The notes beneath the pieces were generated by a model, which did no database searches, was not told the DNA's origin, and saw only the letters and a list, made by a program, of their open reading frames with translations. Positions 6,101 through 33,612 of a stretch of 64,000 bases of DNA are shown piece after piece. Position 1 is the first letter of the stretch. Every line of letters begins with the position of its first letter. The translations under genes were made by a program, and so were the position numbers. The stretch comes from Promethearchaeota archaeon. Lineage in GTDB: Archaea; Asgardarchaeota; Lokiarchaeia; Sigyniarchaeales; SOKP01. The stretch spans positions 31,134 to 95,133 of the forward strand of contig JBHLMQ010000011.1 in assembly GCA_048938005.1 (NCBI GenBank). The letters run 5' to 3'.

Positions 6101-7834
6101 ATGGTTGAAAATAAACCTGGTAAGAAGGAGAAAAAGAAGTTAATAGCTCGGTTGGGGAAAAAACAAGTAATTTCTGTAGGAATAATATCATCAGTAGCAA
6201 TAGCAGTGATTATTAGCGGTATTTATTTCTTTACAATACCAGAGGTAAGAGGTGATGAAATTATCATTGGTTTGAACGATGCTCCAAATTCTATCGATCC
6301 ACTTAAGAATCCAACTCCAAAATATGTAAATCTAATCATAATTGATCAAATTGCGGAAGGATTATTTGCTTACGACCAAAACAAAACGGATACTCCCATT
6401 ACTCCTAATCTAGCATTGAATGGGAGTTGGAGCCTTGATCACCTAAATTTCACTTGTACTCTAAGAAGTAATGTCACATTCCACGATGGAACACCATTTA
6501 ATGCTACAGCTGTAAAATGGAACTTTGATAGAATTTATAAATTTATTGAAATTATGCCGCAATATGACACGATGTATTGGTATCCTGCATATTTAGACTC
6601 AGAAGGTAATCCAATCATAAATCGCACTGAAATAGTAAATGATTATACTGTAAAATTTGTCTTAAACAAACCTTATGTTCCTATAAGGGATTTACTTACC
6701 CTCTGGAACTCTTACATACTTTCCCCGAATTCTACTCCAGATGACGAATTCATCGATATTAGGACTGGGAAGCTAGTCGGAACTGGCCCTTTTATTTTTG
6801 ATTCCTGTGAGGTAGATTTCTACGGTGAGAGTTTGAAAACAGATATGCATGCTAATCCAAATTATTGGGGTGGAACACCCTCAATTAATATACTGTCATT
6901 TCTTGCATTAAATTCTGGTACAGAAAGAATGGAAAGAATGTTATCTGGAGAGCTTTCATATACTATGGGACCTCGTGATGATAGTGTACTCGATATATAC
7001 AGAAACACTCCCGGAATTACTGTAGTTCCAAAAACAAGATTGAATTTATTTTATCTTGGTATGAATAACAACACAATAGATGTCACAATGAGAAGGGCAA
7101 TTTCTTATGCTTTTAATTATACTCGCCATATTGAAGAATATTGGGGAGGACATGCAGAGAGAGCAAGATCTCCTCTTTCAAATAGGATGCGTTATTCTAA
7201 CTGGGAGGATTTTGATGTGCCAGATTATAATATTACAAGAGCAAGACAAATCTTAAAAGATGCGAATTGGCCTGGAACAAGTGGGTTAACCGCAAACGAT
7301 AATATAACTACTGGAAACGAGTGGGAAATGATAGCAAATAGTTCAACACCTCTAAGAATATATAATTTTTCGACTTGTACTTCATGGATGGAATTCGTAG
7401 CTAATCTAACAATTGCAGATCTCAAACAGATTGGAGTGAAAGTAAATATTCTTAAAATGGGAGGTGTTGAATTTTTTGATAAATTATATGAAGGTGAACA
7501 CGATATTTTTACGGCAGGATGGGGAGTTACTCGTACGGACCCTGTTGATGTTATCAACCCATTATACTCAAGTAAAGTAGATGGGGTTAGTAATTATATT
7601 AATTTCAATGATACAAAAGTACAACAATGGATGGAACAAGCTCTTGAAGAATTTAATGAAACCAAAAGGGAACAATTATACTTTAAGATTCAACAGCGCT
7701 TTATTGAACAGCTTAATCCATTCCTATGGCTAGCTCATCCTATAGATTATGATATTTGGGATTCAGATGTAAAAGGAATCCCAATAGATGGAGCTCCATT
7801 GAGACTTATATTAAAATATTGTTATTTAACTTAA
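6101..7834 (+). CDS. membrane-anchored family-5 (DppA/OppA-like) solute-binding protein, cassette copy 1
   Basis: LRSNVTFHDGTPFNATAVKWNFDR, VGTGPF, NPNYWG, RRAISYA; N-terminal TM anchor. Confidence 0.9.
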   Translation: MVENKPGKKEKKKLIARLGKKQVISVGIISSVAIAVIISGIYFFTIPEVRGDEIIIGLNDAPNSIDPLKNPTPKYVNLIIIDQIAEGLFAYDQNKTDTPITPNLALNGSWSLDHLNFTCTLRSNVTFHDGTPFNATAVKWNFDRIYKFIEIMPQYDTMYWYPAYLDSEGNPIINRTEIVNDYTVKFVLNKPYVPIRDLLTLWNSYILSPNSTPDDEFIDIRTGKLVGTGPFIFDSCEVDFYGESLKTDMHANPNYWGGTPSINILSFLALNSGTERMERMLSGELSYTMGPRDDSVLDIYRNTPGITVVPKTRLNLFYLGMNNNTIDVTMRRAISYAFNYTRHIEEYWGGHAERARSPLSNRMRYSNWEDFDVPDYNITRARQILKDANWPGTSGLTANDNITTGNEWEMIANSSTPLRIYNFSTCTSWMEFVANLTIADLKQIGVKVNILKMGGVEFFDKLYEGEHDIFTAGWGVTRTDPVDVINPLYSSKVDGVSNYINFNDTKVQQWMEQALEEFNETKREQLYFKIQQRFIEQLNPFLWLAHPIDYDIWDSDVKGIPIDGAPLRLILKYCYLT

Positions 7835-7844
7835 TTAAACGAAG

Positions 7845-8834
7845 TTAAGTTGGGACACTATATAGATTCCAAAAATAATCTCCTCCATCCCATTTAAATA
7901 AAGTGAAATTATAGTTATTTTGAGTAGGAAAATCTTTGGAATAAAAAAATTGTCCTGCCATTAATGGTAAGGTATCCCTCTCGAAGCCTATCCATGTATT
8001 TTGTCCTTCAACGCCGAAACCAGTTTTATTATACAATGTAAATTGAGCCCCGATATTAGGTGAATAATCATTATAGATTAAAGAGATGTATCCAGTTTTT
8101 GTAATTCCAGTACCAGTAATATTGGCACCCATTTCTTCAAATTGATAAATATCAATAGTAATATAACCTATTTCATTAACAAAAGTCAATGTACAATTTT
8201 GATTATATTGATTGTTATAAGCTTTTAATGTTATATCTCCATTATTGACAATTCCAGTTACATTGCCTAAAATGTTACAGGAAGTAAAATCATAAAAAAT
8301 ATTACCATTAATGACATTTGTGAATACGTTATTTAGGTTAATTCCCATTGGTGTGATCACTTCGACTGCCCCTTCTAGAACTGATGAATTAATATCAAAA
8401 ATAACATCAGCTCGTAATAAAACATTTATGTTAATATTTGCTTTATGTAGATTTGAAAAATCCGCTATCATGTCTGATTTTATTTCTAAAGTGAAATTTA
8501 TTGGAGAAGTCAAGTTTTCCCAATAAATATTCAATAGATCTAAGTACGATTTTCCATCTAAGTTTGGACCTGCCATCTCAATATTTACGTCTATTTTTAC
8601 AAGATAATCAACCGGTTGAGTATTATAATTTATATTGATTTTACCTACATCAGCATTAAGATTCAATTGTCTTTCAAGAGGGTGTGTAGTTGATGAATAT
8701 ACATATGTAAGGGATTCATCAATCCTACTATAATTTGAATATTCAGCTAATAGAATGACGGTTGGAATACTTATAATAATAAGAGCAAAAGTAATGTTTA
8801 TTATGATAAGTATGGTTTTATAATTTCTCTCCAT
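7845..8834 (-). CDS. membrane-anchored beta-rich extracellular protein (DUF4097/adhesin-like), copy 1
   Basis: N-terminal TM followed by Asn/Ile/Gly-rich beta repeats; paralogous to 16716.. and 25988.. Confidence 0.7.
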   Translation of the reverse strand: MERNYKTILIIINITFALIIISIPTVILLAEYSNYSRIDESLTYVYSSTTHPLERQLNLNADVGKININYNTQPVDYLVKIDVNIEMAGPNLDGKSYLDLLNIYWENLTSPINFTLEIKSDMIADFSNLHKANININVLLRADVIFDINSSVLEGAVEVITPMGINLNNVFTNVINGNIFYDFTSCNILGNVTGIVNNGDITLKAYNNQYNQNCTLTFVNEIGYITIDIYQFEEMGANITGTGITKTGYISLIYNDYSPNIGAQFTLYNKTGFGVEGQNTWIGFERDTLPLMAGQFFYSKDFPTQNNYNFTLFKWDGGDYFWNLYSVPT

Positions 8835-8873
8835 TATTACAATTCTTGAAAGATTACAAATTTCTCTAAGTAA

Positions 8874-8900
8874 TTAGATAAGATAAGTTTGTATTTAAAT
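8874..8900 (-). promoter_or_regulatory. conserved promoter motif (TTTAAATA TATA-like + TCTTATCTAA) of beta-rich gene, copy 1
   Basis: TTAGATAAGA..N..TATTTAAAT recurs at 17785-17811 and 27024-27050 at the equivalent position. Confidence 0.6.
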
Positions 8901-9017
8901 TGTTTACCAAAAATAATCCTATATAGCCCTCTATTGAAATTTATCAAAAAAGCATAATTTATTAATATTGAAATTCCTTAATAGATATTTATTGATTAAT
9001 TTAACTTAGCAGATGTT

Positions 9018-10010
9018 ATGACATTCGATCCTCTAGAACGTTTTTTCTCAAGCATGGCTATTTTTCTATTATTTATTTGTAGTCTTTTATATATCTCCAG
9101 GGGATTTAAAAGAGACGATAAAAATGAAAGAATTTTAATGTTCGGATTTGGAGTTTTTTCGTTTAAGATTGCCTTAACAAGACTATTTTTTTATATCATC
9201 GACTATTTTTTGATCGGAACTTACACTGGCGATTTAAATATTATTATTCAGACTTACGATGTCGTAAATTATATTTTTCTATATTTCTACTTATATCTAT
9301 ATATCCAAGTTTTTATAAGTACAATAGTTATAATGACCATATTTATTTGGTCGTCATTCAAGTCAAAACATGAATTTCAGGCAATCTCATCAGTTATAGC
9401 GATCGGATTTGCCATATTTTTAATTGGATGGAGTTTTGAGGCATTTATTATAAAAAATTTAAGAATATTTACTCCTGCAATACCTCCGATATTTATAATA
9501 ATGGGAGTTCTTATAACTATTTCACCGTTAATAGGCTATATTGAATTCTTTTCAAAACGCATTGTCAAAGTATTTATTTTAATCATGATAAGTTTACTCG
9601 CAATATATATAGGATTAACTTTAATTTTTAATATTCAATTGGTTGATTTGGTCCTAATTATAATTTGGATAGCCGTTTTTACTCTCATTTTAACAATAGG
9701 ATATATATTTTATAATTATGTGAAAAGAAGAGAATCTGGCAAGTATAAGGAAGAACTAAAAGATACATTAAGAATTTTTACCAAACCTCCTAAATTTGAT
9801 ATACAAGAAATCAAATATAGTAGAGAAAAAGAATTATGTCTGGTGTGCAAAAATAAGATTTCAGGATTGACATATGTTTGTCCTAAATGTGGTGCATGGT
9901 ACTGTTTAGCCTGTTGTGAAGCCTTAACTGAGTTAGAAAACGCTTGTTGGGGATGCGAAACACCTTTTGATAAGTTTAAATCTGTAAAATATATGAATAA
10001 AAATTATTGA
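9018..10010 (+). CDS. multi-pass membrane protein with C-terminal C4C4 RING-like zinc finger, copy 1
   Basis: About 7-8 hydrophobic helices; C-x2-C-x10-C-x2-C-x4-C-x2-C-x10-C-x2-C. Confidence 0.8.
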   Translation: MTFDPLERFFSSMAIFLLFICSLLYISRGFKRDDKNERILMFGFGVFSFKIALTRLFFYIIDYFLIGTYTGDLNIIIQTYDVVNYIFLYFYLYLYIQVFISTIVIMTIFIWSSFKSKHEFQAISSVIAIGFAIFLIGWSFEAFIIKNLRIFTPAIPPIFIIMGVLITISPLIGYIEFFSKRIVKVFILIMISLLAIYIGLTLIFNIQLVDLVLIIIWIAVFTLILTIGYIFYNYVKRRESGKYKEELKDTLRIFTKPPKFDIQEIKYSREKELCLVCKNKISGLTYVCPKCGAWYCLACCEALTELENACWGCETPFDKFKSVKYMNKNY

Positions 10011-10040
10011 AGAAATTTTATAAAAAAAATTCATGAAAAA

Positions 10041-10238
10041 GTGAAGTTAATGATTGATTTTATTTTTTTAATTCTAATTATTTTCTTAATAATTTCATTT
10101 CTTACTTCATTAATTATATCAATATGGGTTTATAGAGATGCAAAAAACAGGGATCTAAATGCTTTCCTATGGATTTTAATAATATGGTTGATCCCTAGCT
10201 TATTTGGATTATATTTTTATCTAAAAAGTAGAGAATAA
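10041..10238 (+). CDS. small 2-TM protein (WVYRDA, PLDc_N-like)
   Basis: IWVYRDA...WILIIW motif; paralog at 28327. Confidence 0.7.
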   Translation: MKLMIDFIFLILIIFLIISFLTSLIISIWVYRDAKNRDLNAFLWILIIWLIPSLFGLYFYLKSRE

Positions 10239-10377
10239 TTATTAAAAAATATACATCCTTATATCATTAGAGAATATCGTAAAGTCTTTTTGATTATAAT
10301 CAATAAATTTACTTCAATTAGAATTAATATCTATAAATAAATTAGCTAGAAGCATAAAAACAGAAAGCTACACAATT

Positions 10378-11477
10378 ATGGAGGGGTATAATTAATCCTG
10401 GCTCAAATTTTATTAACAGGAGAGGAAGGTGTAGGGAAATTAACAATCTTGAATCTATTCCCAGGTGAAAATATTTTAGAAATAGACTTACATTTGAATG
10501 AAATTTTTAAAAAATCAATTGAGATAAGAGGGCTCAATGGTATAAAACAATGTATGTTAAGAGTTATCGATTTAAAAGAATTAGTTAGGAATTTAAGATC
10601 ATATAAAGATCTATTACAATCAATTGATATAATTTGTATTATCACAAATTCGCAACTAAGAAATTTAAAAAGTACTCGTATATTGTTATCAAAACTAAAA
10701 CAAAAAGTCCCTGAAGCAAATTATTATGTAATTGCTAATTTTCAAGATAGAAAGCGAATAGTTTTAGAAGTAGAAGAAGTTGAAAAAATGTTAGAAGAAA
10801 AAACGTTTGGATTTTCAGCAGTTCAGAAAGATTCTATGGATAAATTAATTTCTATTATTAAAAATATGTTAAAATTAACAAAATTAGAGAAAGAGATAAA
10901 AACTATCTCTAAGATAGAAATTATATCAAAAGAGGAAAAGAAGGAATCTATTATTAAAGCCAAGGAGAATTATTCAAATATTTGGTCAGAATTAGAGGAA
11001 GCAAGAATATTAGATAATCAAGGAAAAAAGCTCATTGCTGCAAAAAAGTTCTCCAGTGTTGCCTCTCATCTTAAAGAACTTGGTTCAGAAATAGAACTTA
11101 AACAAGAAGGAGAAAAGATTAATGGTTTACATTATTTGTGTAAAGCATGGGAGTTTATGGCACTTGCTGAAGAATATAAAGATCCTAAAAATTATTTAGA
11201 AGCAGCAAATCTCTTTACCGAGGCTAGTGAATGTATTCATGATAGTAAACTAAAACTATTAGCCTTAGGAAATTCAGAGTTATGTAGAGCACTAAAGTTA
11301 GGGCTTGAACTCTGTAAACTGAATCAAACTAAGAATAACTTAGAATATTACCCAAAAATAAAAATATTGATTAAAAAAGCTGTGGATTTATACAGAAAGG
11401 GTGGTTTTGAAAAAGAAGCAGAGTGGGCTTTAGATAAATCCTCTCATTTTAATGCCACCAATCACTCTAGTCCATAG
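10378..11477 (+). pseudogene. degenerate small GTPase + helical-repeat protein, frameshifted and 3'-truncated, copy 1
   Basis: ATG at 10378 aligns with the copy-2 start but one nt is missing after codon 4; P-loop reads GEEGVGKL; C-terminus is shorter than copy 2 and runs into the Ubl gene. Confidence 0.65.
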
Positions 11478-11705
11478 TTCTAATTTATCATTTTCTTTTA
11501 AACCAAAATCTTGAACGGCTTCTCTTATGGATAAGGAATTAGGTAATTCTTTACCTTTATAGACTAAAGCAAATGATCGATCTTCTAAGCTCATTGTGCC
11601 TAAATGTTTAACAACTATATTTATGATACTTTCAATCATATGTTTTTCATTAACATCTATTTTAATTATTTTCCCTTTTCTCGTATCTTCAACTGATAGT
11701 ATCAT
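11430..11705 (-). CDS. ubiquitin-like protein (…WTRVIGG + tail)
   Basis: Beta-grasp pattern LVYKGKEL...GLKENDKLEL and a di-Gly motif. Confidence 0.8.
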   Translation of the reverse strand: MILSVEDTRKGKIIKIDVNEKHMIESIINIVVKHLGTMSLEDRSFALVYKGKELPNSLSIREAVQDFGLKENDKLELWTRVIGGIKMRGFI

Positions 11706-11822
11706 AATATCTTGAATATTGTTTTTATTAATTCCTATTTAATAATTAACTATTTTACAATTTAAAGAATATTCTAATCAATTATTTTTAATTATTGTTA
11801 TTTAATTCATAGTTTATTAAGC

Positions 11823-11865
11823 ATTTTTAGATTTAACTTCGGAATATTTTAAAAAGTTCGAAGTT
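11823..11865 (-). repeat. inverted repeat / operator copy A
   Basis: 42/43 nt reverse-complement match to 13454-13496. Confidence 0.85.
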
Positions 11866-12055
11866 CCTTGAAATTTAAATCTAACCAGAGATAGTGATTT
11901 ATTTTAAGATTTAAATGTAGTATCTTGTTAAGATGAGATTAAATTATTTAAACAGGATTGAATTATCTCTATATTGAAATTATAAATATATGTTTTAAAA
12001 AAGTATAAACTAAATTATTTTAGAAAAAATAAGAGTTATATGGTGTTTTATTAAG

Positions 12056-13399
12056 ATTTGTGCTAAAAAATTAAATTATCCCCCACAAGAGATACTTACA
12101 CCTTCAGGGATTGAAAAGAAAGATTTTGAATATATTATTCTTTGGATGTTAACTAATAATGAAGAATGCAATTGGTCAGATTTTTCAGACGAACCCATAG
12201 AAATCAGCTTAGCTACATTATCAAAATATATGAATCAATTAATGACAAATGGATTTGTGGAAAAAAAAGAGAAGGGGATCTATAAAATTACAACCGAAGG
12301 TAAAAAACGATATTTTGATTTGCGATTTAAAGATTCTTATGACAAGAAATTAAGGTACCCCCCAGAAATCCTTCTAAATAAAAGAAATTATGACCACATT
12401 ATCCTTTGGATGTTGTTCAATAATGATTATTGTAAATGGTCAGATTTCCTCGAAAAACCTCTCTCAATTAATCACAATTCTCTTTCGAAAAATCTAAATC
12501 TTTTATTAAAAAAAGAATTTGTTGAAAAAGAAAAAATGGAATATCGAATCACTAAACAAGGTGAATTACAATATTCTAAAATGTTAAAAAAATATGATTT
12601 AGACTATCAAACTATTTTAGAAGAAGAAGTTAAAAGAATTGAAAATGCCAAAGAAAAGGTAAATGATCTTCTTGAAAAGTTCGAAATTGAGGAGGATGAG
12701 ATAAAAGTCATATTATTGGATTTAGTTAACCATGTAGACTATGCTACAATTGAAAACTTACTACCGTCAGAGGAGGATTATTATAGGATATTATTATTCT
12801 TTTCGTTGAATCATCCTTACAATTATCCAGAATACATATTACCTGAAATATTCTCTCTTAAATTTAATATTAAACTTGTCTCATTAAATTTCTTCATACA
12901 AAAAATTGTAGAAGAGAATTTGTGTGGAATAAAATTCTTTAAGTTAAGTATTAATGAGGACGGAACATATTATTTCCGAGTAGACGAAAAATTTGAGAAG
13001 ATGTTATATTTAATCATAGATGAGAATATTGTAAAATTTAGTTATCTAACTAAACTAAAACCAAGTATTCCAAATGAAAAACAAGTTTTACAAACAATGA
13101 GTTTAATAGAGAATATTGTAGAGGATATCTCGAATAAGTTGTTCGATGAAAATATAAAACCGCATATAATAAAATTCTTACCACAATATATCAAATATTT
13201 ATACTCGAAATTTCAGAGAACTGATTATACTAATGATGGAATGGAAAAGTTCAAAGGGATTGCTTATCAAAACATTATTAATTTAAATTGGGATGATTTC
13301 AATGAAATACTTCTCAAAAAGAAATTAATCACAAATCTTATGCATACTTTTCCGAAGTATACAATATTGGATAAAATCAAAAAGAAATGGGCAAAATGA
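12056..13399 (+). CDS. tandem winged-helix transcriptional regulator, copy 1 (probable ATT start; first ATG 12146)
   Basis: Two internal repeats YPPxE...IILWMLxNNxxCxWSDF...LS...Y.IT..G; homology extends 30 codons upstream of the ATG. Confidence 0.8.
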   Translation: MCAKKLNYPPQEILTPSGIEKKDFEYIILWMLTNNEECNWSDFSDEPIEISLATLSKYMNQLMTNGFVEKKEKGIYKITTEGKKRYFDLRFKDSYDKKLRYPPEILLNKRNYDHIILWMLFNNDYCKWSDFLEKPLSINHNSLSKNLNLLLKKEFVEKEKMEYRITKQGELQYSKMLKKYDLDYQTILEEEVKRIENAKEKVNDLLEKFEIEEDEIKVILLDLVNHVDYATIENLLPSEEDYYRILLFFSLNHPYNYPEYILPEIFSLKFNIKLVSLNFFIQKIVEENLCGIKFFKLSINEDGTYYFRVDEKFEKMLYLIIDENIVKFSYLTKLKPSIPNEKQVLQTMSLIENIVEDISNKLFDENIKPHIIKFLPQYIKYLYSKFQRTDYTNDGMEKFKGIAYQNIINLNWDDFNEILLKKKLITNLMHTFPKYTILDKIKKKWAK

Positions 13400-13453
13400 A
13401 TACTAAATTTATTATTTAGATCTATCCTATATTGTATTGAACGAATTTCAATA

Positions 13454-13496
13454 AACTTCGAACTTTTTAAAATATTCCGAAGCTAAATCTAAAAAT
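13454..13496 (+). repeat. inverted repeat / operator copy B
   Basis: AACTTCGAACTTTTTAAAATATTCCGAAGCTAAATCTAAAAAT, about 60 nt upstream of the 13554 start. Confidence 0.85.
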
Positions 13497-13553
13497 AAAT
13501 TGGTGAAGTAAAGATCAATTAATAAAAATTTAAATAAAAGAGGTTAAATATAA

Positions 13554-14240: not shown

Positions 14241-14333
14241 AATTTAAATAAATTACTTTTTTTTCCTTTTTTTTATTCCTTTAACAATATAATTAAACTA
14301 ATAACATTCCAAGAAATATCTTTTATCTTTATC

Positions 14334-14594
14334 TTAAATTTTGCCCCCAATCACTCTAGTCCATAATATTAATTTATCTCCTTCTTTTAGATCAAATTTA
14401 TGAATTGCATCCTTAATGGTTATTGAATTTGGTAATTCTTTTTCATTGTAGATTAAGGAGTAAGATCTTTGTTCAGAGTTTGAAAATTGCTTATTTTGAA
14501 TAATATATTCGAGAATAGACCTAACTACCTGGTTAGGTTTAACATCTATTCTTATTAATTTCCCTGTTCTCGGATCTTCAACAGATAATCGCAT
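14334..14594 (-). CDS. ubiquitin-like protein (…WTRVIGGKI)
   Basis: Paralog of 11430; LIYNEKEL...DLKEGDKLIL, di-Gly. Confidence 0.8.
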   Translation of the reverse strand: MRLSVEDPRTGKLIRIDVKPNQVVRSILEYIIQNKQFSNSEQRSYSLIYNEKELPNSITIKDAIHKFDLKEGDKLILWTRVIGGKI

Positions 14595-14691
14595 AATAGT
14601 TTCATTTAATTTTTGATTCTGAATATCGCTTATTATACAATTAGGGAATCTATTATTTTTTTTATACTAATAATTAATTTAAAAATGTCAT

Positions 14692-20927: not shown

Positions 20928-20933
20928 TAGGAT

Positions 20934-23207: not shown

Positions 23208-23247
23208 GAAAGGCAGATACCTATCTAGGGTTGAATTTTTTAATTAA

Positions 23248-25970: not shown

Positions 25971-25987
25971 TTATGATATTAGTAGCT

Positions 25988-26983
25988 TTAGCTATTATTG
26001 AGATCAAGTACCAAATAGAGCCCATTTGAATTATTAAATAATAAATTATAGTTATTTTTAGTTGGATAATCATCGGACCATAGATAAAAAATATCTTGCT
26101 CATCTGAAGGAATAGAATTGAATCCTATAACCTGATTCATAGCTTGACGTAAAGAGAGATCATCAGCATTGTAATATAAAGTAAAGTATGCCCCAACATC
26201 TGTATTATCATCTTTATACTTAAATCTAATATTACCATGATCATGAGAGATGGTACCAGAAACGTTTGCATTCATATCAGTATATTGAAAAATTTCAATT
26301 AAGAAATCTCCTGATCCAGTATTGAGAACCCAAGTAGTGTTTTGTGAGTATTCTATATTATATGTTTTTAATTCTATATTTCCTGTTTCCTGGATAATTC
26401 CGGTTAAATTACCTTCTAAAATACAGTAGGAAAAGTCATAGTGAATGTTGCCTTTTGAAATGTTAGTTAGTATATTCCCAACAGAAATACCATATGGAAC
26501 TGCTATTTTAACACCTCCTTGAACATTGACAACTACACTAATATCACATATTATATCTGCTTTAAGCGCTACAGCTATGTTGACATTCTTTATAAGGGAT
26601 AATATTTCAGCTTGATCTATACCTGCTTTTAGCTCCATGCTAAAGTTTACGATACCGCTTGTATTTTGCCAAACAATCTTGAAATAATCTGAATAATTTT
26701 TTTCAATTAAATTTGGACCTATCATTTCAATACTTACCTCAATTTTGGCATCATAATCAACTGGGGGATCAATATATTGTATTTCAATATTTCCTATATC
26801 AACATATAGGTTTAATTTGTCAAGATAAGGAGGTGAAATTGGAGCATATTTATAAGTAAGAAACTTATTAAGCTTACCATAAGATGAGAGCCCAACTGAG
26901 AGAAATGTGATTGGAGCGGCAATAATAAAACTGAACACAATTACAATCATTATAGCAATAGCACTTATAACATTCCTAGCCAT
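25988..26983 (-). CDS. membrane-anchored beta-rich extracellular protein, copy 3
   Basis: Paralog of 7845 and 16716. Confidence 0.7.
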   Translation of the reverse strand: MARNVISAIAIMIVIVFSFIIAAPITFLSVGLSSYGKLNKFLTYKYAPISPPYLDKLNLYVDIGNIEIQYIDPPVDYDAKIEVSIEMIGPNLIEKNYSDYFKIVWQNTSGIVNFSMELKAGIDQAEILSLIKNVNIAVALKADIICDISVVVNVQGGVKIAVPYGISVGNILTNISKGNIHYDFSYCILEGNLTGIIQETGNIELKTYNIEYSQNTTWVLNTGSGDFLIEIFQYTDMNANVSGTISHDHGNIRFKYKDDNTDVGAYFTLYYNADDLSLRQAMNQVIGFNSIPSDEQDIFYLWSDDYPTKNNYNLLFNNSNGLYLVLDLNNS

Positions 26984-27215
26984 CTTTAAATCTTATGTAA
27001 AGGTTTATTAATTTTACAATTATTTAGATAAGAGAGCCTTTTATTTAAATTAATCCATCTAAATCATTCAATTATTATTCAATTCTCTCTATAATAAATT
27101 AGATAAATCAAAGTGCGAAAAATCAAAACTCTTTTATATTGATATCTCTTATAGGCTAATTATTGTAAAAGAGTATAATTTTGTTTTTTTTAGGTGATTC
27201 TAAGCAATTATTTTT

Positions 27216-28274
27216 ATTGTTTATGACGCATTAGAGCGTTTTTTTGCAGGTTTTGCGATTTTTACATTAATAATTAGCAGTTTAATGTATGTATCTCGAG
27301 GTCGTAAAAGAGAAATTATACATGAAAAAATGCTAATGTACGGATTTGCAAGCTTTTGGCTAAGTATTGGATTGGCACGTCTTTTCTTTTATTTCTCTGA
27401 TTTTTTTTTAGAAGGGACTTATACGGGTGATTTAAGCATAATAATTCAAACTTATGACATCATTCACTATACTTTTCTTTATTTCTATTTATATTTTTAT
27501 GTCTATATCTTCATTAATATAATATCTTTAACCATATTGTTTATTTGGTTTTCTATGAGATCGAAAAAGGAATTCCAAGCAATATCCTCTGTGATGGCAA
27601 TTGGATTTACTGTATGTTTGATAGGATGGGCTTTTGAGACAATGATTGTAAAAGATTTAAATCTAATTTCTCCAATAATCCCCCCTATACTTGTCTTAAT
27701 TGGTGCGATCATCGCAATAGCCCCTTTAATTATCAATCTTGAGTTTTTTTATAGATCTTTAGCTATTTGGTTTGTAGCAATTTTAATTAGTTTTATATTG
27801 ATATTTTTAGGATTGACATTTTTTACTAATTTTCCTTTACCAATAATAAGTCTAATAATAATCTCTATTTCAGCTCTGGCACTGGTATTGTTAACAGTTT
27901 ATATATCGATTAGCATAGTTAAGAGAGTTAGAACACGAGAAGATACTTCTCCGGTTAAAAAAGAGGAACTCAAAGATTTTCTTACTATTTTCACTAAACC
28001 TCAAACCATTACTGAAGAAGAACTTAATACTTATAGAGAAAAGAAAATTTGCGTCGTATGTAAAAGTAAAGTTTCACGACTAAATTATGTGTGTCCCGAA
28101 TGTGATGTCTTATATTGCATTAGATGCTCTAAAGCGTTAGTTAATTTAGAAAATGCATGTTGGGTATGTGATACTCCTATCAATATATCAGATCAGGTTC
28201 CAGTTTTGAAAGTAGAGGAATTATTAAAAGAAACAGAATTAAATCCTAATGACAAAGAAATTAGAAATAATTAA
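27216..28274 (+). CDS. multi-pass membrane protein with C4C4 RING-like finger, copy 3 (probable ATT start; first ATG 27285)
   Basis: IVYDALERFFAGFAIF upstream of the ATG aligns with the copy-1 N-terminus; CVVC-x10-CPEC-x4-CIRC-x10-CWVC. Confidence 0.8.
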   Translation: MVYDALERFFAGFAIFTLIISSLMYVSRGRKREIIHEKMLMYGFASFWLSIGLARLFFYFSDFFLEGTYTGDLSIIIQTYDIIHYTFLYFYLYFYVYIFINIISLTILFIWFSMRSKKEFQAISSVMAIGFTVCLIGWAFETMIVKDLNLISPIIPPILVLIGAIIAIAPLIINLEFFYRSLAIWFVAILISFILIFLGLTFFTNFPLPIISLIIISISALALVLLTVYISISIVKRVRTREDTSPVKKEELKDFLTIFTKPQTITEEELNTYREKKICVVCKSKVSRLNYVCPECDVLYCIRCSKALVNLENACWVCDTPINISDQVPVLKVEELLKETELNPNDKEIRNN

Positions 28275-28326
28275 ATAAAGCGAGAAAAAAAATAAAATGA
28301 GTAAACCTTAAAATAAAAGTGATTTT

Positions 28327-28548
28327 ATGATTTTTGACCTTTTCTCTTTAATGATGACGCTTCTTTTGGTTTTTATATTAATCCCATTTATAATTTTATC
28401 TTTTATAGCGATTTGGGTATATAGAGATGCTAAAAAAAAAAGGATTAATGCAGCTATATGGGTTATCATCATATGGATAATTCCTTTTTTTATTGGTGTA
28501 ATTATATACTTTATAATGAGAGATAAAATCTCAGAAGAAGTTCAATGA
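28327..28548 (+). CDS. small 2-TM protein (WVYRDA, PLDc_N-like)
   Basis: Paralog of 10041. Confidence 0.7.
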   Translation: MIFDLFSLMMTLLLVFILIPFIILSFIAIWVYRDAKKKRINAAIWVIIIWIIPFFIGVIIYFIMRDKISEEVQ

Positions 28549-28568
28549 GTTTTTTATTGGATACTTAG

Positions 28569-29450
28569 TCAATCATAAATTTCAAAAACGTTATTTAACA
28601 TTTCCTTTATTATTGAAAAAATCTTATTTTCAGCATCTTTTGATTTTGCTGAAAAACCAAATGTTCTAACTCCAAAAATTTCCTCAACTTCTTCTGGTTC
28701 GAGAGAGACCTTATCTAAATCTTGAAAGTTTGCGATTACAAAGAAGGTTGCTTTCTTTACTTTTGGTCTTAATGATAAGAATAATTTCTGGGTTTTACTT
28801 ATATTAGTTGCACCCGAATTAGTAACAAGACAAATTATATCAATAGAATCTAAGAGTTGTCTGTAAGATCTTGAATTATCAACCAATTCCTTTAAATTAA
28901 TTTCCCTTAAAATACACTCATTAATACTCTTAAAATCAGGTAAGAAAATAGATTTTTGTATAACTTCTCTCATGTCTTCATCTAATTCAATTATTGTTTC
29001 TCCTGCAAATAAGTTCATTATAGTAGTCTTACCAACACCATCCTCGCCAACCAACAAAATTATAGGAGGAATAAAAATGTGTTTTTCAACAAATTCATCA
29101 AAACTTTCAAATTTTCCTATATCATGATCCCAATTTATTAAATCATCATGATATCGTTTGATAAATTCCTTTTTTAGAAGTTCCAATTTATTCCTTAGTT
29201 TTTCCTCTGGGTCATTGATATCAGCTAATAATATAAAAATGCAACGCTTATCATTATCATAAGAATAGATAATGTTAAAATTTCTAAAATTTAATGATCT
29301 TATTTCTCCTCCTCCAATCTTTTTAGAAATATCAATAGTCGCTGTGAGAAATGCACTTACAAAATCCTCATCAATCTGATTTGTACCAAATAGCGTTTTT
29401 GAATAACAAAGTATACCGCTAGATAATATAATTAAAACCTTAGAAATCAT
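28569..29450 (-). CDS. longin-like domain fused to atypical small GTPase
   Basis: N-terminal SGILCYSK...VSAFLTA...GEIRSL longin pattern; GEDGVGKTT, NFQD, FSAK; no DxxG. Confidence 0.8.
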   Translation of the reverse strand: MISKVLIILSSGILCYSKTLFGTNQIDEDFVSAFLTATIDISKKIGGGEIRSLNFRNFNIIYSYDNDKRCIFILLADINDPEEKLRNKLELLKKEFIKRYHDDLINWDHDIGKFESFDEFVEKHIFIPPIILLVGEDGVGKTTIMNLFAGETIIELDEDMREVIQKSIFLPDFKSINECILREINLKELVDNSRSYRQLLDSIDIICLVTNSGATNISKTQKLFLSLRPKVKKATFFVIANFQDLDKVSLEPEEVEEIFGVRTFGFSAKSKDAENKIFSIIKEMLNNVFEIYD

Positions 29451-29521
29451 CTGAGATTTCGAAATTTTCTTTTTTATTTTGACTAATATTTAATCATAAT
29501 ATGATTGAAAAATTATAATAA

Positions 29522-31426
29522 TCATTCTAAATCTTCAATCTCAGCAAGAAAAATATCTGCTATTTTATGCCATTTCTGTTTAATATCTAGTTCTTTTGAC
29601 ATCGAATCTGTTAATTCTTTTCCCTTTTTAAGATATTTAACTGCAGACTTCTTATTTCCGAGCTCTTTATAACATATACCTAACTTTATATATGTCTGAT
29701 TAATATACCATTCATCAATAGCAATTTCAATTACTTTTTGAAATTGTTCTACAGCATTTTCATACTCTTCGAAATACATCAAAATTTCTCCATAGGTATC
29801 ATAGTAAGTCCCATTATCAGGGTCAAGTTCTATGATATTGCGAATGAGATTTAATGATTCTTCTTTTTTATTTAGATATTGCAACCAATAAGCCTTATAA
29901 ATAAGTATCTCGTTATCTTTAGGATATTTTTGGAGTAATTCATTAATGATGGTTAATCCGGCTTCAAGATTCCCTATTCTTTTAAGTATAGACGCTTTTT
30001 TTATTTTAATGTCTATCTCATTTTTAGGAAAAATTTCAAGCATATAATCCAATAATGCCAAAATTTCATCAAATTGGCCAAAATAAATTAGAATCCTAAT
30101 TTTTGAGTTATATAAGTCTAGCGATTTTGGATTCAATTCAATTTTTTTATTAATTTCGTTAAGTTCTTCCCGATATTGAATTTCTAGCTTTTCAGGACTT
30201 TTTGATTGAAAGATTTTTGGTATGTTTTGCCAAATAATTCCTTCTAATTTATCATATGTTTCTATTAATTCCCTCTCAGCTTCGATTTTATATGCCAAAT
30301 AATTAATATATCCAGGTATAAACTCTTTTAACGCTTCCTTTAAACCTTTATCAAGCAAAGTTTCACAGATTTCTTCTACAATATCATTTAAAGTACTTGC
30401 TGCATCTGAGGATCTAGCGAATAATTTGTTTAAATATATAAATTCTGTTAAATGATTCTCAGTAATCGCACGCATTATTGTCTCCAATTTTTCATATTCC
30501 TGAAAATAATAATGTTTATCTGGTGGTACTCTTAATTCAAAAAATTTTAGTGGATATATATTATTCTCAACAATTTCATCAACATAATAGGTTAGAGTAT
30601 TCTCCTTAATTCTATAATTCTTAGAAAATTCTTCAGCTGAAACGTAATCGGGAAATTGATCTGGATGATTAATTGAAAGAAATAATAAAATCTTATGAAA
30701 ATCTTCCTCGTTTTTTAACATAGATTTAACTCTATTATAATCTAATTTTAAAACATTGTTTAAAAATCTAAATTGGATACGCTTATCCTTAATATTATAA
30801 CTATTAAAAAAATTGATTGTTTGTTTTGTGATTTCTTCAATTCGCTTACTTTCTTCTTCCAAGATTGTTTGTCTGTCCAAATCGTAATATTTCAGCATCC
30901 CTGAATACTCAGATTTGCCTAATTGAGTAATTCTATATTCTCTATTTTCATCATCCTTTCTAATAAATCCATTTTTTATCATCATTTTCATTGTTTTTGA
31001 TAATGATGATTGATTAATTGAAAGAGGTTCTTCAAGAAATTCAGACCATTTACAATAATTATTATTGTACACCATCCATAAAATCCAATGATCGTAATTC
31101 CTTCCACTTTTTAAGATTGTCTCAGGAGGATAACTTAACTTTCTTTCCTTCTTTTCAACTTTAGATAAGTCATAAAATCTCCTTTTTCCATCTAATGTAA
31201 TTTTATAATGTCCTTTTGATAGTTTAGTGATGTATCCTTCACTCTTTAATACATTAAGGTGTCTTGATAAAGTTGATGTGGGAATTTCAAGTGGGCTCTC
31301 AAGAAAATTAGACCACTCACATTCATCGTTATTAAATAACATCCAAAGAATAATATGCTCATAATTCTTTTTGTCTACCGTTGGAGGATTAATGATCTCT
31401 TGAGGGGGGTAATTAATCGTTGACAT
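29522..31426 (-). CDS. tandem winged-helix regulator with C-terminal TPRs, copy 3
   Basis: Same duplicated wHTH repeat; TPR motifs such as IELDPDNGTYYDTYGEIL. Confidence 0.82.
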   Translation of the reverse strand: MSTINYPPQEIINPPTVDKKNYEHIILWMLFNNDECEWSNFLESPLEIPTSTLSRHLNVLKSEGYITKLSKGHYKITLDGKRRFYDLSKVEKKERKLSYPPETILKSGRNYDHWILWMVYNNNYCKWSEFLEEPLSINQSSLSKTMKMMIKNGFIRKDDENREYRITQLGKSEYSGMLKYYDLDRQTILEEESKRIEEITKQTINFFNSYNIKDKRIQFRFLNNVLKLDYNRVKSMLKNEEDFHKILLFLSINHPDQFPDYVSAEEFSKNYRIKENTLTYYVDEIVENNIYPLKFFELRVPPDKHYYFQEYEKLETIMRAITENHLTEFIYLNKLFARSSDAASTLNDIVEEICETLLDKGLKEALKEFIPGYINYLAYKIEAERELIETYDKLEGIIWQNIPKIFQSKSPEKLEIQYREELNEINKKIELNPKSLDLYNSKIRILIYFGQFDEILALLDYMLEIFPKNEIDIKIKKASILKRIGNLEAGLTIINELLQKYPKDNEILIYKAYWLQYLNKKEESLNLIRNIIELDPDNGTYYDTYGEILMYFEEYENAVEQFQKVIEIAIDEWYINQTYIKLGICYKELGNKKSAVKYLKKGKELTDSMSKELDIKQKWHKIADIFLAEIEDLE

Positions 31427-31500
31427 TTTCTATGTAACTAAATATTATGAACCTTAGATAATGTTATACTATTATTCTATTTATATTTTTTTCCTAATAC

Positions 31501-31553
31501 TGCCATGATAGTTCGGAATTACTATGGGACTGCGATGATAAAAACTATAAATG
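31501..31553 (+). repeat. direct repeat / operator-promoter upstream of 31660
   Basis: 50/53 nt identical to 32636-32688. Confidence 0.85.
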
Positions 31554-31659
31554 TAACAGGATCTATCTGTTATATTGATCTGATAACTATGATCGAAATT
31601 TACATAAAAAGAGGAGTTGATAAAAAATAAAACAACGTAAAAATAGGATTATTAAAGTC

Positions 31660-32346
31660 TTGAAATATAGCTTTCTACTAATTATATTAATAGGTCTATT
31701 CTCGCAATTTATTAGTTATGGCCGTTCTGCTCCGTCAGGAATATTCGATGGTTTGTATATTAGTCATATACATAGCCTTTCTACATATCCTGAAGAAATT
31801 CCTACAAATCTCTCATATACTCATGTTTCAGGTGATATTTATCATGTTGAATGGGCTTGGGGAGGTTCAATCGGTTCTACGGGTTCTTGGGATGTCAATA
31901 TTAACACTAGAATTGTCTCAAATGTGCAAGTTTTTGGTCCTCCAAATGGATCTCATCCTGCATTTTGGATTCACACAAATATTTCACTTTATGATGAAAT
32001 TATATCATCCTGTGCTTTAACTTCTGCTGGTACCTTTACCATTTCTAATAATTTAGTTATACCCTATGGAAATATCTCTATAAATATTTGGGAAATGACA
32101 GATCCAGATAATACTAAAGTATGGTATGAAAAGAGTACTGGAATTCTTTTAAATGGCACGTTTCGTAAGGGAACAATCCATTGGGAGAGTTTTGAATATG
32201 TTGATACTAATGCTGTTTTCAATGAAGCAACAATACCTTCAGATGGGGGCACAATTCCAGGATACAATTATTTCTTACTAATTAGTATGTTTTGCTTAAT
32301 TGGAATAATAATAATTCAATACAAATCAAAAAAAAGGAAAAAATGA
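31660..32346 (+). CDS. secreted protein with Loki-CTERM-type tail (type A)
   Basis: GIFDG, GSWDVN, WYEKxTG shared with 13554; IPGY-TM-basic tail. Confidence 0.8.
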   Translation: MKYSFLLIILIGLFSQFISYGRSAPSGIFDGLYISHIHSLSTYPEEIPTNLSYTHVSGDIYHVEWAWGGSIGSTGSWDVNINTRIVSNVQVFGPPNGSHPAFWIHTNISLYDEIISSCALTSAGTFTISNNLVIPYGNISINIWEMTDPDNTKVWYEKSTGILLNGTFRKGTIHWESFEYVDTNAVFNEATIPSDGGTIPGYNYFLLISMFCLIGIIIIQYKSKKRKK

Positions 32347-32413
32347 TAATATTAGCAAGTAGAAATTATAGATTTATTTTTGCAATATTAAAATAATTAA
32401 AAGATATGGAAAA

Positions 32414-32478
32414 AGGAGGAGTAAGGTTAAAAAAGCACACATAAACTTTTATTCCTCCATTCTATCTACCTTTTTTTT
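32414..32478 (+). terminator. hairpin + poly-T
   Basis: GGAGGAGTAAGGTT / AACTTTTATTCCTCC stem (with G-U pairs) followed by a T-run. Confidence 0.55.
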
Positions 32479-32635
32479 AAAATTATACAAAAAAAGTGGA
32501 GTGAAAATATTCAACGTTTTTTAATATTTAATAGAATTTATTACTTGAAATTCCATAACAACAGAACTATATAATCGAATAAAAGTTATAGATAATATCA
32601 TATTTATTACTCTATTTATATCTGTTTTCCAATAT

Positions 32636-32688
32636 TGCCATGATAGTTCGGAATTCCCATGGAACTGCGATGATAAAAACTATAAATG
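32636..32688 (+). repeat. direct repeat / operator-promoter upstream of 32773
   Basis: TGCCATGATAGTTCGGAATTCCCATGGAACTGCGATGATAAAAACTATAAATG. Confidence 0.85.
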
Positions 32689-32772
32689 GAATTAAATCAT
32701 CACTTTTAATTGGTCATCCATAAGATGATCACTAAAAAATTTAAAAAATATAAAAAAAAGAGATTGAAAAAA

Positions 32773-33504
32773 ATGAAAAATACAAAAATACTATTAGGTG
32801 CAATTCTAGGGGTTTTAGTACTTAGCTTTGTACCCACAGTTCTCGGATATGGAACTATAAAAAGATCTCTTGAAGATGATTGGCTCATCCACACTGATGG
32901 CGTATCTGGTTTAAATGATCATATAGGAATTTGGGCTTCAGAACAGTTAGCAATCTGCCCACATCGCGAATATGATCCTTATTGGAATTTCGTATCTATA
33001 TTGGAGTGCGATTATCATGGACACCTCCTAGAAAGAGCATTGCCTGATGGAAGACATATGATAACAGTCCACATACAAGTAAAAGGAGCGCCGGTACTAG
33101 TCGAAACATATGATACTGATCCTAGTAATATCATCACACTATTTGTAGGGAAAATGGATTATATATTTCAGTTAAGATTCATAGTTGATTTAGAAGAATG
33201 GCCGCCTTGGTTGGTACCATGGTTAGATGATGATGGCTTTGATAATAAGACGGGGTATGTCATACTACCTGCATATTTACCTCTTGCTTTTGATGCTCTT
33301 ATGATGTACGAGTTTGGATTGGAGTTTGTCAGCGTGCTGTTTATCGGTATCGGTAAAGGAGAAATGGTTAATGACTGGAATGGTTTAGAGCTTGGAGATA
33401 CTGCAAAAGTAGTAGGAGCTACGTATGGATCCGCAAAGAAGGGATATAATTTTATAGATCCATTTTGGCCAATATGGCCTTGTAACTTCATAAAATTGTT
33501 TTAA
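32773..33504 (+). CDS. secreted hypothetical protein (type B)
   Basis: Signal peptide MKNTKILLG...; paralog of 22563. Confidence 0.7.
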   Translation: MKNTKILLGAILGVLVLSFVPTVLGYGTIKRSLEDDWLIHTDGVSGLNDHIGIWASEQLAICPHREYDPYWNFVSILECDYHGHLLERALPDGRHMITVHIQVKGAPVLVETYDTDPSNIITLFVGKMDYIFQLRFIVDLEEWPPWLVPWLDDDGFDNKTGYVILPAYLPLAFDALMMYEFGLEFVSVLFIGIGKGEMVNDWNGLELGDTAKVVGATYGSAKKGYNFIDPFWPIWPCNFIKLF

Positions 33505-33520
33505 ATAGATTTAAATAAAA

Positions 33521-33612
33521 ATATAGGATAGAAGGAAAAAGTTTAGAAAGAGGGCATCTCGAATACCCTAACCTAAACCGAATATCCTCCCATTTTATAT
33601 TTCTTTTTTTTT
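33521..33612 (+). terminator. long hairpin + poly-T after type B gene
   Basis: GTTTAG/CTAAAC and AGGG/CCCT stems, TCTCGA loop region, T-run. Confidence 0.6.

Follow-up and report, generated by a model that had tools for sequence, protein, structure and literature searches.

Three paralogous cassettes in a Promethearchaeota genome and a candidate membrane-bound extension of the archaeal ubiquitin operon

What brings a solute-binding protein (SBP), a multi-pass membrane protein with a zinc finger, a GTPase-like protein, ubiquitin-like proteins (Ubls) and a winged-helix protein together three times over on one archaeal contig? The question is raised by a 64,000-nucleotide stretch of a Promethearchaeota archaeon (hereafter the window, meaning this stretch at its full length), which covers positions 31134–95133 of contig JBHLMQ010000011.1 (contig C70; C70:31134-95133) in assembly GCA_048938005.1. 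The assembly, a metagenome-assembled genome (MAG), comprises 3.72 Mb in 101 contigs, with 95% completeness and 7% contamination, and the background G+C content of the window is 28–31%. The explanation favored here, with a probability of roughly 0.6, is that three old paralogous copies of one module lie in the window, that the module is conserved across one genus of Promethearchaeota (Loki-type Asgard archaea), and that it is an extended, membrane-bound version of the archaeal eukaryote-like ubiquitin operon.

Three paralogous cassettes and their conserved neighborhood

Listing and translation of the open reading frames (ORFs) placed the three cassettes at 6101–14594, 14987–23207 and 23444–33504 (Table 1). 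Their gene content, paralogy and conserved linkage, and their domain identities at the levels scored, are matters of direct observation. The common order is an SBP gene, a convergent gene for a beta-rich anchored protein (of the toast-rack type discussed below), a multi-pass zinc-finger protein, a P-loop protein, a Ubl, a protein with two winged helix-turn-helix (wHTH) domains, and one or two secreted-protein genes. Ubl genes number two in cassette 1, one in cassette 2 and none in cassette 3. In an all-versus-all BLASTP comparison, every component was paralogous between copies, far more so than chance would allow, at 36–64% identity, except for SECb2 and SECb3, which gave no mutual match at E 1e-3 and share a label by position only. 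The identities amount to 40–42% for the SBPs, 41–46% for the beta proteins, 51–63% for the RING proteins, 46–55% for the GTPase-like proteins, 51–64% for the Ubls, 42–62% for the wHTH proteins and 36% for SECa1 and SECa3.

A preliminary description of the window, made from its letters and ORFs, had already reported three cassettes with this gene order and with Ubl genes in copies 1 and 2 only. The 36–64% identity of their parts confirms that observation, and every gene it named was found where it had been placed or close by. Its gene list passed over a small two-helix membrane gene in copies 1 and 3 and a Ras gene in cassette 3, and its tandem triplication holds for the number of copies and not for a recent event, the copies being old paralogues by the tree described below. 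Its Asgard host agrees with all of the named homologues and loci, which come from Promethearchaeota or Promethearchaeia MAGs. Short contigs from four public sequencing runs span 13001–33000, bridging both the junction of cassettes 2 and 3 and that between the two-helix gene and the GTPase-like gene of cassette 3; the arrangement is thus not an assembly artefact of this one genome.

The description had also proposed co-occurrence in other genomes as a check, and the neighborhood does recur. RING2, the zinc-finger protein of cassette 2, was searched against 61 related genomes, and the surroundings of its matches were annotated by BLASTP against the window proteins. Full-length RING2 orthologues (44–84% identity) occur in 16 of the 36 genomes drawn from the same genus, and matches to the finger alone are far commoner. 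Neighborhoods were counted at 29 loci of the RING1–3 type in other genomes, which are relatives, so the counts are not independent, although the paralogues are old and the proteins share just 45–70% identity. The small two-helix gene is present in all 29, the Arf-like (GTPase-like) gene in 27, the toast-rack gene in 25, the Ubl in 24, the SBP and wHTH genes in 23 each (two of the SBP misses lie at contig ends) and SECa/b genes in 18. A JAMM protease gene accompanies 12 of the 29 and an E2 (conjugating enzyme) gene 11, the E2 standing next to JAMM and E1 (activating enzyme) genes. Because these 11 loci hold E2 beside E1 and JAMM, the module extends the known archaeal ubiquitin operon. Gene order is kept in at least 15 genomes at 45–84% protein identity.

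Complete cassettes with E2, E1 and JAMM were found at loci L033, L035, L039, L040, L042, L045, L090, L091 and L092. In the type-3 cassettes of other species, the interval between the Ubl and Arf-like genes encodes a 164-amino-acid (aa) JAMM/MPN+ protein, a ThiF-type E1 (~295 aa) and a UBC-type E2. Cassette 3 of the window lacks this block as well as the Ubl, leaving 20 bases between the two-helix gene and NTP3, a junction that the independent contigs confirm. The full cassette of sister genomes runs Ras-like GTPase, SBP, toast-rack, seven-transmembrane (7TM)-RING, small two-transmembrane (2-TM), Ubl, E2, E1, JAMM, longin/Arf-like, double-wHTH and surface proteins, and from these comparisons it would be best explained as the ancestral type. 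The Ras gene at the head of cassette 3 belongs to the cassette, since its orthologue directly adjoins the SBP gene upstream in seven related loci (L035, L040, L045, L046, L067-type, L075 and L092).

A maximum-likelihood tree of 49 RING proteins places RING1 in a clade of 10 rows (support 100/96), to which RING2 and its G014 orthologue (100/100) are sister (97/94). RING3 falls in a basal grade with the cassettes that bear E1 and E2, and RING4, a paralogue from another contig, falls in a separate clade (100/100). It follows from this topology that the three window copies split before the sampled species did.

The ubiquitin-like conjugation core

The link between the cassettes and ubiquitin-like conjugation is well supported. 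The Ubls had been recognized as such in the preliminary description, and they are indeed homologues of ubiquitin: all 21 aligned Ubls, among them the three of the window, have an invariant C-terminal GG, which is followed by a tail of 0–10 residues. A Ubl profile covers ubiquitin residues 7–77, matching single-ubiquitin chains at E 0.015–0.09 and polyubiquitin down to 1e-25. The Pfam ubiquitin family stays below its cut-off for the window Ubls, and TUG-UBL1 exceeds its own for UBL2 only. Of the four Ubl genes of this type in the genome, three lie in the window.

The sole E2 of this type in the genome, located by tblastn, lies with E1 and JAMM on another contig, C9. There, genes for 7TM-RING4 and Ubl4 are followed on the other strand by E2, E1, JAMM, an 880-aa protein (NTP4) and a Ras-like GTPase, beyond which lie two proteins of ~900 aa that combine FG-GAP repeats, a transmembrane (TM) helix and a RING-like finger. 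RING4 is 23–25% identical to RING1–3. Pfam matches on C9 include UQ_con (7e-11), ThiF (3e-47) and JAB (6e-14). In the E2, the HPN motif and the catalytic Cys are invariant (31 of 31 sequences), and eukaryotic E2s are matched at 3e-10; the best solved relative of the JAMM protein is the Rpn11-like protein of Caldiarchaeum (4.7e-12). Across 61 genomes, E2s of this type are encoded by 31 of the 36 from the genus, usually as a single gene, by none of 14 from family f2 and by three of four from family f4. Around 29 E2 loci of the genus, E1 is always present, an Arf-like gene follows JAMM in 27, and Ubl and JAMM occur in 26 each; a 7TM-RING gene (at least 200 aa) lies within 6 kb in 17, the misses being mostly at contig ends. 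Both C9 and C70 come from the same partly contaminated MAG (7%), a caveat despite which the complete single-contig genome G006 contains both kinds of locus, C9-type and C70-type. Elsewhere, a second E1-like gene (G000 C97:14309-16869; 28–29% identical to the C9 E1) has a JAMM-like gene nearby and may belong to a Ubl system of the SAMP/Urm1 kind.

The zinc-finger protein is the membrane component. An AlphaFold2 (AF2) model of RING1, built from 56 sequences (predicted local distance difference test score, pLDDT, 77), shows seven long helices and, at the C terminus, a small alpha/beta domain. Loops rich in K and R after helices 1, 3, 5 and 7 of the model would, in our reading, put the N terminus outside and the C-terminal finger in the cytoplasm. 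The finger is spaced C-x2-C-x10-C-x2-C-x4-C-x2-C-x10-C-x2-C, and six of its eight ligand positions are invariant and two at least 90% conserved in alignments of 24 and 56 sequences; RING4 has His at ligand 5, making it C4HC3 where the others are C4C4. A profile of the finger domain matched the TRIM37 RING (0.002) and the TFIIH p44 finger (0.0026) in the PDB, and also PHD fingers, RNF4 and Mdm2. Foldseek matched the finger locally to TRIM37 (probability 0.98), HRD1 (0.97) and Ring1B (0.85), all at E > 0.1, since the search used the entire 330-aa model. Named homologues of the protein come exclusively from MAGs of Promethearchaeota, Promethearchaeia or Lokiarchaeia and from a few with other Asgard labels, and all are hypothetical proteins with no Pfam domain. 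Directly behind its gene, copies 1 and 3, and not copy 2, carry the two-helix membrane gene of 65–73 aa. The finger is greatly expanded in the genus, with 11 matches in this genome, up to 22 in one relative and hundreds overall, often as the cytoplasmic tail of large membrane proteins; the two on C9 with FG-GAP repeats ahead of a TM helix and the finger (G000 C9:71357-74062 and 74328-76997) are examples.

Prediction of a RING/E2 complex, another check proposed at the outset, gave the C9 E2 and the RING1 finger a score of 0.52, against 0.00 for the best of three controls, with contacts agreeing by at least 83% between runs and a partner pLDDT of at least 79. In a benchmark, the mark was reached by 58 of 80 solved complexes and two of 110 mismatched pairs, and scores up to 0.60 took in only seven of those 80 complexes but both mismatches. 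As RING–E2 is a textbook pair that has been solved many times, the pass may reflect likeness to solved complexes rather than binding, and the model lends weak support to such a complex.

The P-loop protein, called an atypical GTPase in the preliminary description, does prove to have an Arf-like domain that lacks DxxG. A profile of 12 type-3 sequences aligned motifs G1–G4 with Arf1 and Arl in a PDB search (E 0.0016–0.1, with 0.0016 for Arf1), although the G3 motif DxxG is found in none of the 12, G4 reads NFQD where Arf has NKQD, and the Pfam Arf score is below cut-off (19.2 versus 22.3); the G5 motif SA is present. The Atlas cluster of NTP3 comprises 376 Asgard proteins, 45–47% of them with Arf, Ras or Roc matches, and lies near GTPases fused to longin or roadblock domains. 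We read the N-terminal beta-beta-alpha-beta-beta-beta-alpha domain predicted for NTP3 as longin-like; NTP1 and NTP2 have a helical C-terminal domain in its place. The P-loop GxxxxGK[ST] (G1) is present in NTP2 and NTP3 and absent from NTP1 and several type-1 orthologues. The P-loop of NTP1, within 10392–10448, precedes the first canonical start codon (10449) and reads GK-L instead of GK-S/T, and orthologues have GK-H, G-N-T or truncations; from sequence, NTP1 looks like a pseudo-GTPase in the making. The 880-aa NTP4 (G000 C9:66777-69419; L049:8778-11420, - strand) joins longin-like, Arf-like, helical and CN_hydrolase (PF00795, 1e-9) domains. The E, K and C triad positions of its CN_hydrolase domain look present in the sequence, and its orthologues measure 791–880 aa in at least eight genomes.

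These parts could work together as follows. The window cassettes would draw E1, E2 and JAMM in trans from the single C9 set. The JAMM protein would trim the Ubl tails and so expose GG, and the Ubl would then be charged by E1 and E2. At the membrane, the cytoplasmic finger of the N-out/C-in 7TM protein could recruit the charged E2~Ubl and thereby serve as an E3 (ligase), for which the small RING finger protein of Caldiarchaeum offers a precedent (PMC5654768). The externally anchored SBP/toast-rack pair might provide the 7TM protein with extracytoplasmic input, whether from a ligand or from a client protein. Copies 2 and 3 of the Arf-like protein are predicted to be GTP-competent, and that of copy 1 has a decayed P-loop; the protein may be an adaptor, a switch or a substrate, and the wHTH protein would either link the system to gene expression or itself be modified.

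Several observations weigh against a membrane-bound ubiquitin module of this kind. No E1, E2 or JAMM gene occurs in the cassettes of the window, cassette 3 has no Ubl and the P-loop of copy 1 has decayed, so that these satellite cassettes could be losing their link to ubiquitin. SBP and toast-rack genes lie within 12 kb of only 8–9 of the 29 E2 loci. The E2 of the neighboring family f4 has only unrelated genes around it (L072 examined by Pfam, L070 and L071 screened by BLASTP); the queries used therefore did not follow the module past the genus, and all of the comparative evidence comes from one genus of related, non-independent genomes. The finger itself departs from the classical C3HC4 RING consensus in its x4 gap between ligands 4 and 5 and its all-Cys ligand set. 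Pfam models for RING, C1 and PHD all remain below cut-off (zf-C3HC4_3 at 18.8 bits versus 27), with C1_2, C1_1 and PHD-like models scoring alike. The membrane RING protein of the preliminary description stands as a membrane protein with an eight-cysteine finger, whose RING/PHD-like identity has borderline scores only. For the membrane domain of RING1, Foldseek found nothing in the PDB at E <= 0.001, and a wide VIA-align search returned only GPCR-like or designed helical bundles with Z up to 10.7, under the noise bar for helical proteins; no fold was assigned to the 7TM domain on such matches. Finally, the 19 public runs that hold the stretch include no listed RNA run and have no bearing on expression.

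Envelope proteins, winged-helix proteins and rival explanations

The first rival goes beyond ubiquitin conjugation to the full chain put forward in the preliminary description, in which the SBP binds a ligand, the 7TM-RING protein and the GTPase relay the signal, and the wHTH protein is ubiquitylated or degraded and controls the genes for surface proteins and Ubls, a receptor-type ubiquitin signaling system. We infer such a passage from sensor through relay to regulator tentatively, and the odds are against the chain as a whole. Its sensor end draws on the orphan state of the SBPs. All three exceed the SBP_bac_5 cut-off in the genome search, and the absence of ABC permease and ATPase genes remarked on earlier extends across the scanned ORFs of the 64-kb window, none of which has such a domain over threshold; contig C70 has no BPD_transp_1 match, and the nine in the genome all lie on other contigs. 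The beta protein next to the SBP was placed by structure search only: BETA1 has no Pfam match at 0.01, and a toast-rack profile found no PDB sequence at E <= 1, while the Atlas's own model matches Toast_rack_N and DUF4097 clusters at a TM score of 0.59–0.79. Several of these clusters carry fused PspC, LiaF-like or HAAS signaling parts, a point in favor of the full chain. SBP/toast-rack pairs stand directly upstream of the 7TM-RING gene in 23–25 of the 29 loci and have multiplied as units, with two or three per RING gene in L041, L042, L045, L084, L087 and L093, and this joint duplication suggests that the SBP and the toast-rack protein may act together. A fourth, remoter toast-rack paralogue (27–34% identical) lies at G000 C70:29577-30422, ~0.7 kb before the window start and ~7 kb upstream of SBP1, a layout also seen in L032, L038 and L044.

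At the regulator end of the chain, two wHTH domains are borne out by Pfam, NCBIfam and the AF2 model, in line with the tandem-wHTH regulator first described. The wHTH gene, present in 23 of the 29 loci, encodes matches to HTH_45, HTH_34 and MarR in Pfam, and HTH families of the DNA-binding type exceed their cut-offs; NCBIfam matches of WH1 to the archaeal DNA-binding families Sso10a, Sta1 and Lrs14 are all sub-threshold. Divergent pairs of wHTH and surface genes, at 22194–22562 and 31427–31659, would also suit a regulator. Against this, no shared operator motif was found. A k-mer search of the 250 nt upstream of 22 wHTH genes yielded enriched words that proved to be coding, part of an unannotated N-terminal extension, and the candidate operator was rejected. 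Moreover, the WH1 model (pLDDT 85) is that of a multi-winged-helix protein, a fold also found in scaffolds such as RPC62 and cullin; compared with the PDB, it matched nothing at E <= 0.001 and drew only multi-winged-helix proteins and local wHTH regulators.

The upstream conservation has a bearing on the WH1 and WH2 genes themselves. Across species (loci L031, L047, L048, L075 and L093), the ~100 nt before the first ATG of WH1 and WH2 (12014–12145 and 22194–22325) vary at third codon positions, and read in frame they appear to complete the first winged helix by encoding its N-terminal half, as found at the WH3 N terminus. The stretch has no in-frame ATG, GTG or TTG, and L048 has an in-frame TGA just before the conserved part, so that, going by these features, WH1 and WH2 probably start at a non-canonical codon.

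A version of receptor-type signaling at the membrane in which the 7TM protein reads the SBP/toast-rack pair and answers by RING-dependent Ubl conjugation, with an Arf/Rag-like longin GTPase as the gate and a winged-helix factor as the readout, is doubtful.

A second rival is that the neighborhood is a loose one: the SBPs would feed ABC permeases encoded elsewhere, the zinc-finger protein would be no E3, and an island of envelope genes, in some species next to ubiquitin genes, would merely have been co-inherited. The genome does have two complete Opp-type ABC operons elsewhere (C97 and C65), whose permeases the SBPs may use, and both the borderline zinc-finger scores and the lack of E1, E2 and JAMM in the window cassettes would fit. 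This is nevertheless unlikely, given a gene order kept across at least 15 genomes by proteins 45–84% identical, with paralogues older than the species split. The Ubl gene, moreover, is retained in cassettes without E1 and E2 and is present in 24 of the 29 loci, and most of the genome's Ubl genes of this type, three of four, lie within the window.

A third possibility is surface-protein quality control, a forerunner of endoplasmic-reticulum-associated degradation, where the SBP and toast-rack protein would recognize damaged or unfolded surface proteins and the RING protein would ubiquitylate them or their tails for extraction or degradation. Hrd1-type ligases likewise combine a multi-pass membrane domain with a cytosolic RING behind it, and Foldseek matched the HRD1 zinc finger locally at probability 0.97; SBPs of family 5 (the Opp/Dpp family) bind peptides; and the cassettes encode surface proteins with Loki-CTERM-like tails, the SECa1 and SECa3 C termini scoring 18.4 bits against the NCBIfam Loki-CTERM cut-off of 19.9, just below it. 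The TM domain, however, has no Hrd1 match among those listed by Foldseek or VIA-align, Pfam scans found no Cdc48/proteasome, Der1 or lectin-like gene in the cassettes, and the wHTH protein and GTPases fit regulation better, which makes quality control quite improbable.

Antiviral defense of the bacterial Ubl/E1/E2/JAB kind (Bil, CBASS-associated), with the surface proteins as receptors or decoys, would suit a multi-copy, variable and lineage-specific module and the domain-level PADLOC matches of E1 to E1-E2 (Cap2-like; 6e-18), of JAMM to JAB (1e-8) and of the NTP4 nitrilase to the DRT nitrilase (5e-14), but it is very improbable, as the Ubl, E2, 7TM-RING, toast-rack and Arf-like proteins have no or marginal PADLOC matches, E2 and E1 are separate proteins, the E2 being a UBC protein of eukaryote type, and the module occurs like a housekeeping system, in 31 of the 36 genomes from the genus and mostly once in each.

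Other genes of the window lie around the cassettes. A leucine-rich-repeat protein (LRR_4, 8e-48) is encoded just upstream of them at 3942–4979 (-), and a heliorhodopsin gene (Pfam PF18761, 2.4e-97) lies at 43633–44439 (+). Free-standing AlaX-like editing-domain proteins, with the C-terminal part of tRNA-synt_2c and tRNA_SAD or DHHA1, are encoded at 5346–6053 (+) and 62091–63260 (+). Paralogous multi-pass membrane proteins with hexapeptide-repeat (LbH acyltransferase-like) domains are encoded at 33692–38873 (-) and 47779–48630 (-), and two of them (607 and 621 aa) have duplicated halves.

Table 1. Cassette genes of the window, with position, strand and characteristics
Feature	Position	Strand	Characteristics
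SBP1	6101-7834	+	Family-5 solute-binding protein with N-terminal membrane anchor; Pfam SBP_bac_5 4e-64; 40–42% identical to SBP2 and SBP3
BETA1	7845-8834	-	N-terminal TM anchor and toast-rack/DUF4097-like beta domain, by structure matches
RING1	9018-10010	+	Seven-helix membrane protein with C-terminal eight-cysteine RING/PHD-like zinc finger; AF2 model
sTM1	10041-10238	+	Small two-helix membrane protein; homologue behind the RING gene in 29/29 related loci
NTP1	10392-11477	+	Arf-like domain with decayed P-loop (GK-L), helical C-terminal domain; 55% identical to NTP2
UBL1a	11430-11705	-	Ends ...VIGG plus 7-residue tail; weak Pfam ubiquitin/TUG-UBL1; ubiquitin profile match
WH1	12014-13399	+	Double winged-helix with helical C-terminal domain; Pfam HTH_45, HTH_34; first ATG at 12146
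SECa1	13554-14240	+	Surface protein with signal peptide and Loki-CTERM-like sorting tail; 36% identical to SECa3
UBL1b	14334-14594	-	Second Ubl of cassette 1; GG plus 2-residue tail
SBP2	14987-16684	+	PF00496 match in genome search; paralogy
BETA2	16716-17780	-	46% identical to BETA1
RING2	17961-18938	+	63% identical to RING1; 84% orthologue in G014
NTP2	19151-20434	+	Arf-like domain with intact P-loop, helical domain
UBL2	20475-20777	-	GG plus 6-residue tail; Pfam TUG-UBL1 2.5e-6, above cut-off
WH2	20934-22193	-	62% identical to WH1
SECb2	22563-23207	+	Secreted, no family; 68% orthologue in L037
RAS	23444-23989	+	Canonical small GTPase, first gene of cassette 3; Pfam Ras 2.3e-41
SBP3	24159-25970	+	Paralogy; PF00496 match in genome search
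BETA3	25988-26983	-	Paralogy (BLASTP)
RING3	27285-28274	+	Weak Pfam zf-C3HC4_3 and C1_2; paralogy
sTM3	28327-28548	+	Small 2-TM gene; ORF and BLASTP
NTP3	28569-29450	-	Longin-like N-terminal domain and Arf-like domain; abuts sTM3
WH3	29522-31426	-	Double wHTH with C-terminal TPR repeats; Pfam HTH_34 3.6e-10, TPR families
SECa3	31660-32346	+	Paralogue of SECa1; Loki-CTERM-like C terminus
SECb3	32710-33504	+	Secreted; 89% orthologue in L039

Relation to known systems and biological meaning

An archaeal operon of Ub, E1, E2, RING and Rpn11 genes is known from Caldiarchaeum subterraneum and Asgard archaea, as outlined in two papers (PMC5654768, PMC6043591). The present module resembles it in a Ubl with a GG end and a removable tail, and in a ThiF-type E1, a UBC-type E2 (HPN, Cys) and an Rpn11-like JAMM protein clustered with a RING-like finger gene beside them. 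It differs in that the finger is the C terminus of a seven-helix membrane protein rather than a small soluble RING protein, and that a longin/Arf-like protein (up to 880 aa, with CN_hydrolase in the long form) follows JAMM in 27 of 29 loci. SBP, toast-rack, 2-TM, wHTH and surface-protein genes are attached to it as well, and its satellite cassettes have a private Ubl and lack E1, E2 and JAMM.

A second point of comparison is provided by the Asgard ESCRT-ubiquitin clusters, in which Ubl, E1, E2 and RING E3 genes form conserved neighborhoods according to their reports (bioRxiv 10.1101/2023.07.25.550441, PMC9192718, PMC10936438); one ubiquitin cluster of Hodarchaeia includes a Rab-like GTPase and a Yip1 membrane protein, according to the first of these (bioRxiv 10.1101/2023.07.25.550441). 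Both kinds of locus share Ubl, E1, E2 and RING-type genes in conserved neighborhoods. The Pfam-scanned cassettes, in contrast, have no ESCRT or UEV-Vps23 gene, and the partners here are envelope proteins and an Arf-like protein. Small GTPases fused to longin or roadblock domains are likewise described for Asgard archaea in three sources (bioRxiv 10.1101/2020.10.19.343400, PMC10933270, PMC11914678). NTP3 shares with them an N-terminal longin-like domain and an Arf/Rag-like G domain, but here DxxG is lacking, G4 is NFQD and not NKxD, type-1 P-loops have decayed and the gene sits within a ubiquitin operon.

In eukaryotes, transmembrane RING E3 ligases (Hrd1, MARCH and ZNRF3/RNF43, for example) carry a cytosolic RING-type finger behind a membrane domain. 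The 7TM protein is predicted to have the same arrangement, with local fold matches to the HRD1 finger and the TRIM37 RING, but no detectable similarity in its membrane domain, and its ligand set is C4C4 (C4HC3 in RING4), with four residues separating ligand 4 from ligand 5. On the bacterial side, toast-rack/DUF4097 proteins of envelope stress (LiaF, PspC-DUF4097) and the non-transport signaling SBPs of LuxP-LuxQ and TorT-TorS are comparable: the module has a predicted membrane-anchored toast-rack fold in common with the former, and with the latter it shares orphan SBPs next to a multi-pass membrane protein whose output domain is cytoplasmic. In LuxP-LuxQ and TorT-TorS, however, the output is a histidine kinase, whereas here it is a RING-like finger tied to Ubl conjugation, and no two-component genes were seen in the cassettes.

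The module had been put forward as undescribed. A full-text literature search found no published description of the arrangement, and Asgard supplementary tables (asCOG, neighborhoods) may list some of its families; that part of the claim stands, while the core Ub/E1/E2/RING/Rpn11 operon was known, a link that had gone unrecognized. What is new is the finger fused to a 7TM domain, the longin/Arf-like protein as a constant member of the operon, the attached envelope and wHTH genes, and the satellites with a private Ubl and no E1 or E2.

Earlier accounts present the ubiquitin machinery of Asgard archaea either as a compact, soluble operon or in partnership with ESCRT. In the loci studied here, conserved gene order ties it to a multi-pass membrane protein with a RING-like finger, an Arf-like/longin protein and extracytoplasmic binding proteins. 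If the finger is an E3, then membrane-embedded RING ligases and a link between GTPases and ubiquitin would predate eukaryotes, and the expansion of RING-like fingers on the membrane proteins of this genus would be an early case of E3 diversification. The question is directly testable in vitro, because the Ubl, E1, E2, JAMM and cytosolic finger are all small and well defined. Should the receptor reading also be true, the module would be a prokaryotic forerunner of the transmembrane RING ligases of eukaryotes and of their longin-GTPase/ubiquitin nutrient sensing, and its paralogous cassettes would be separate input channels feeding one common set of E1, E2 and deubiquitinase.

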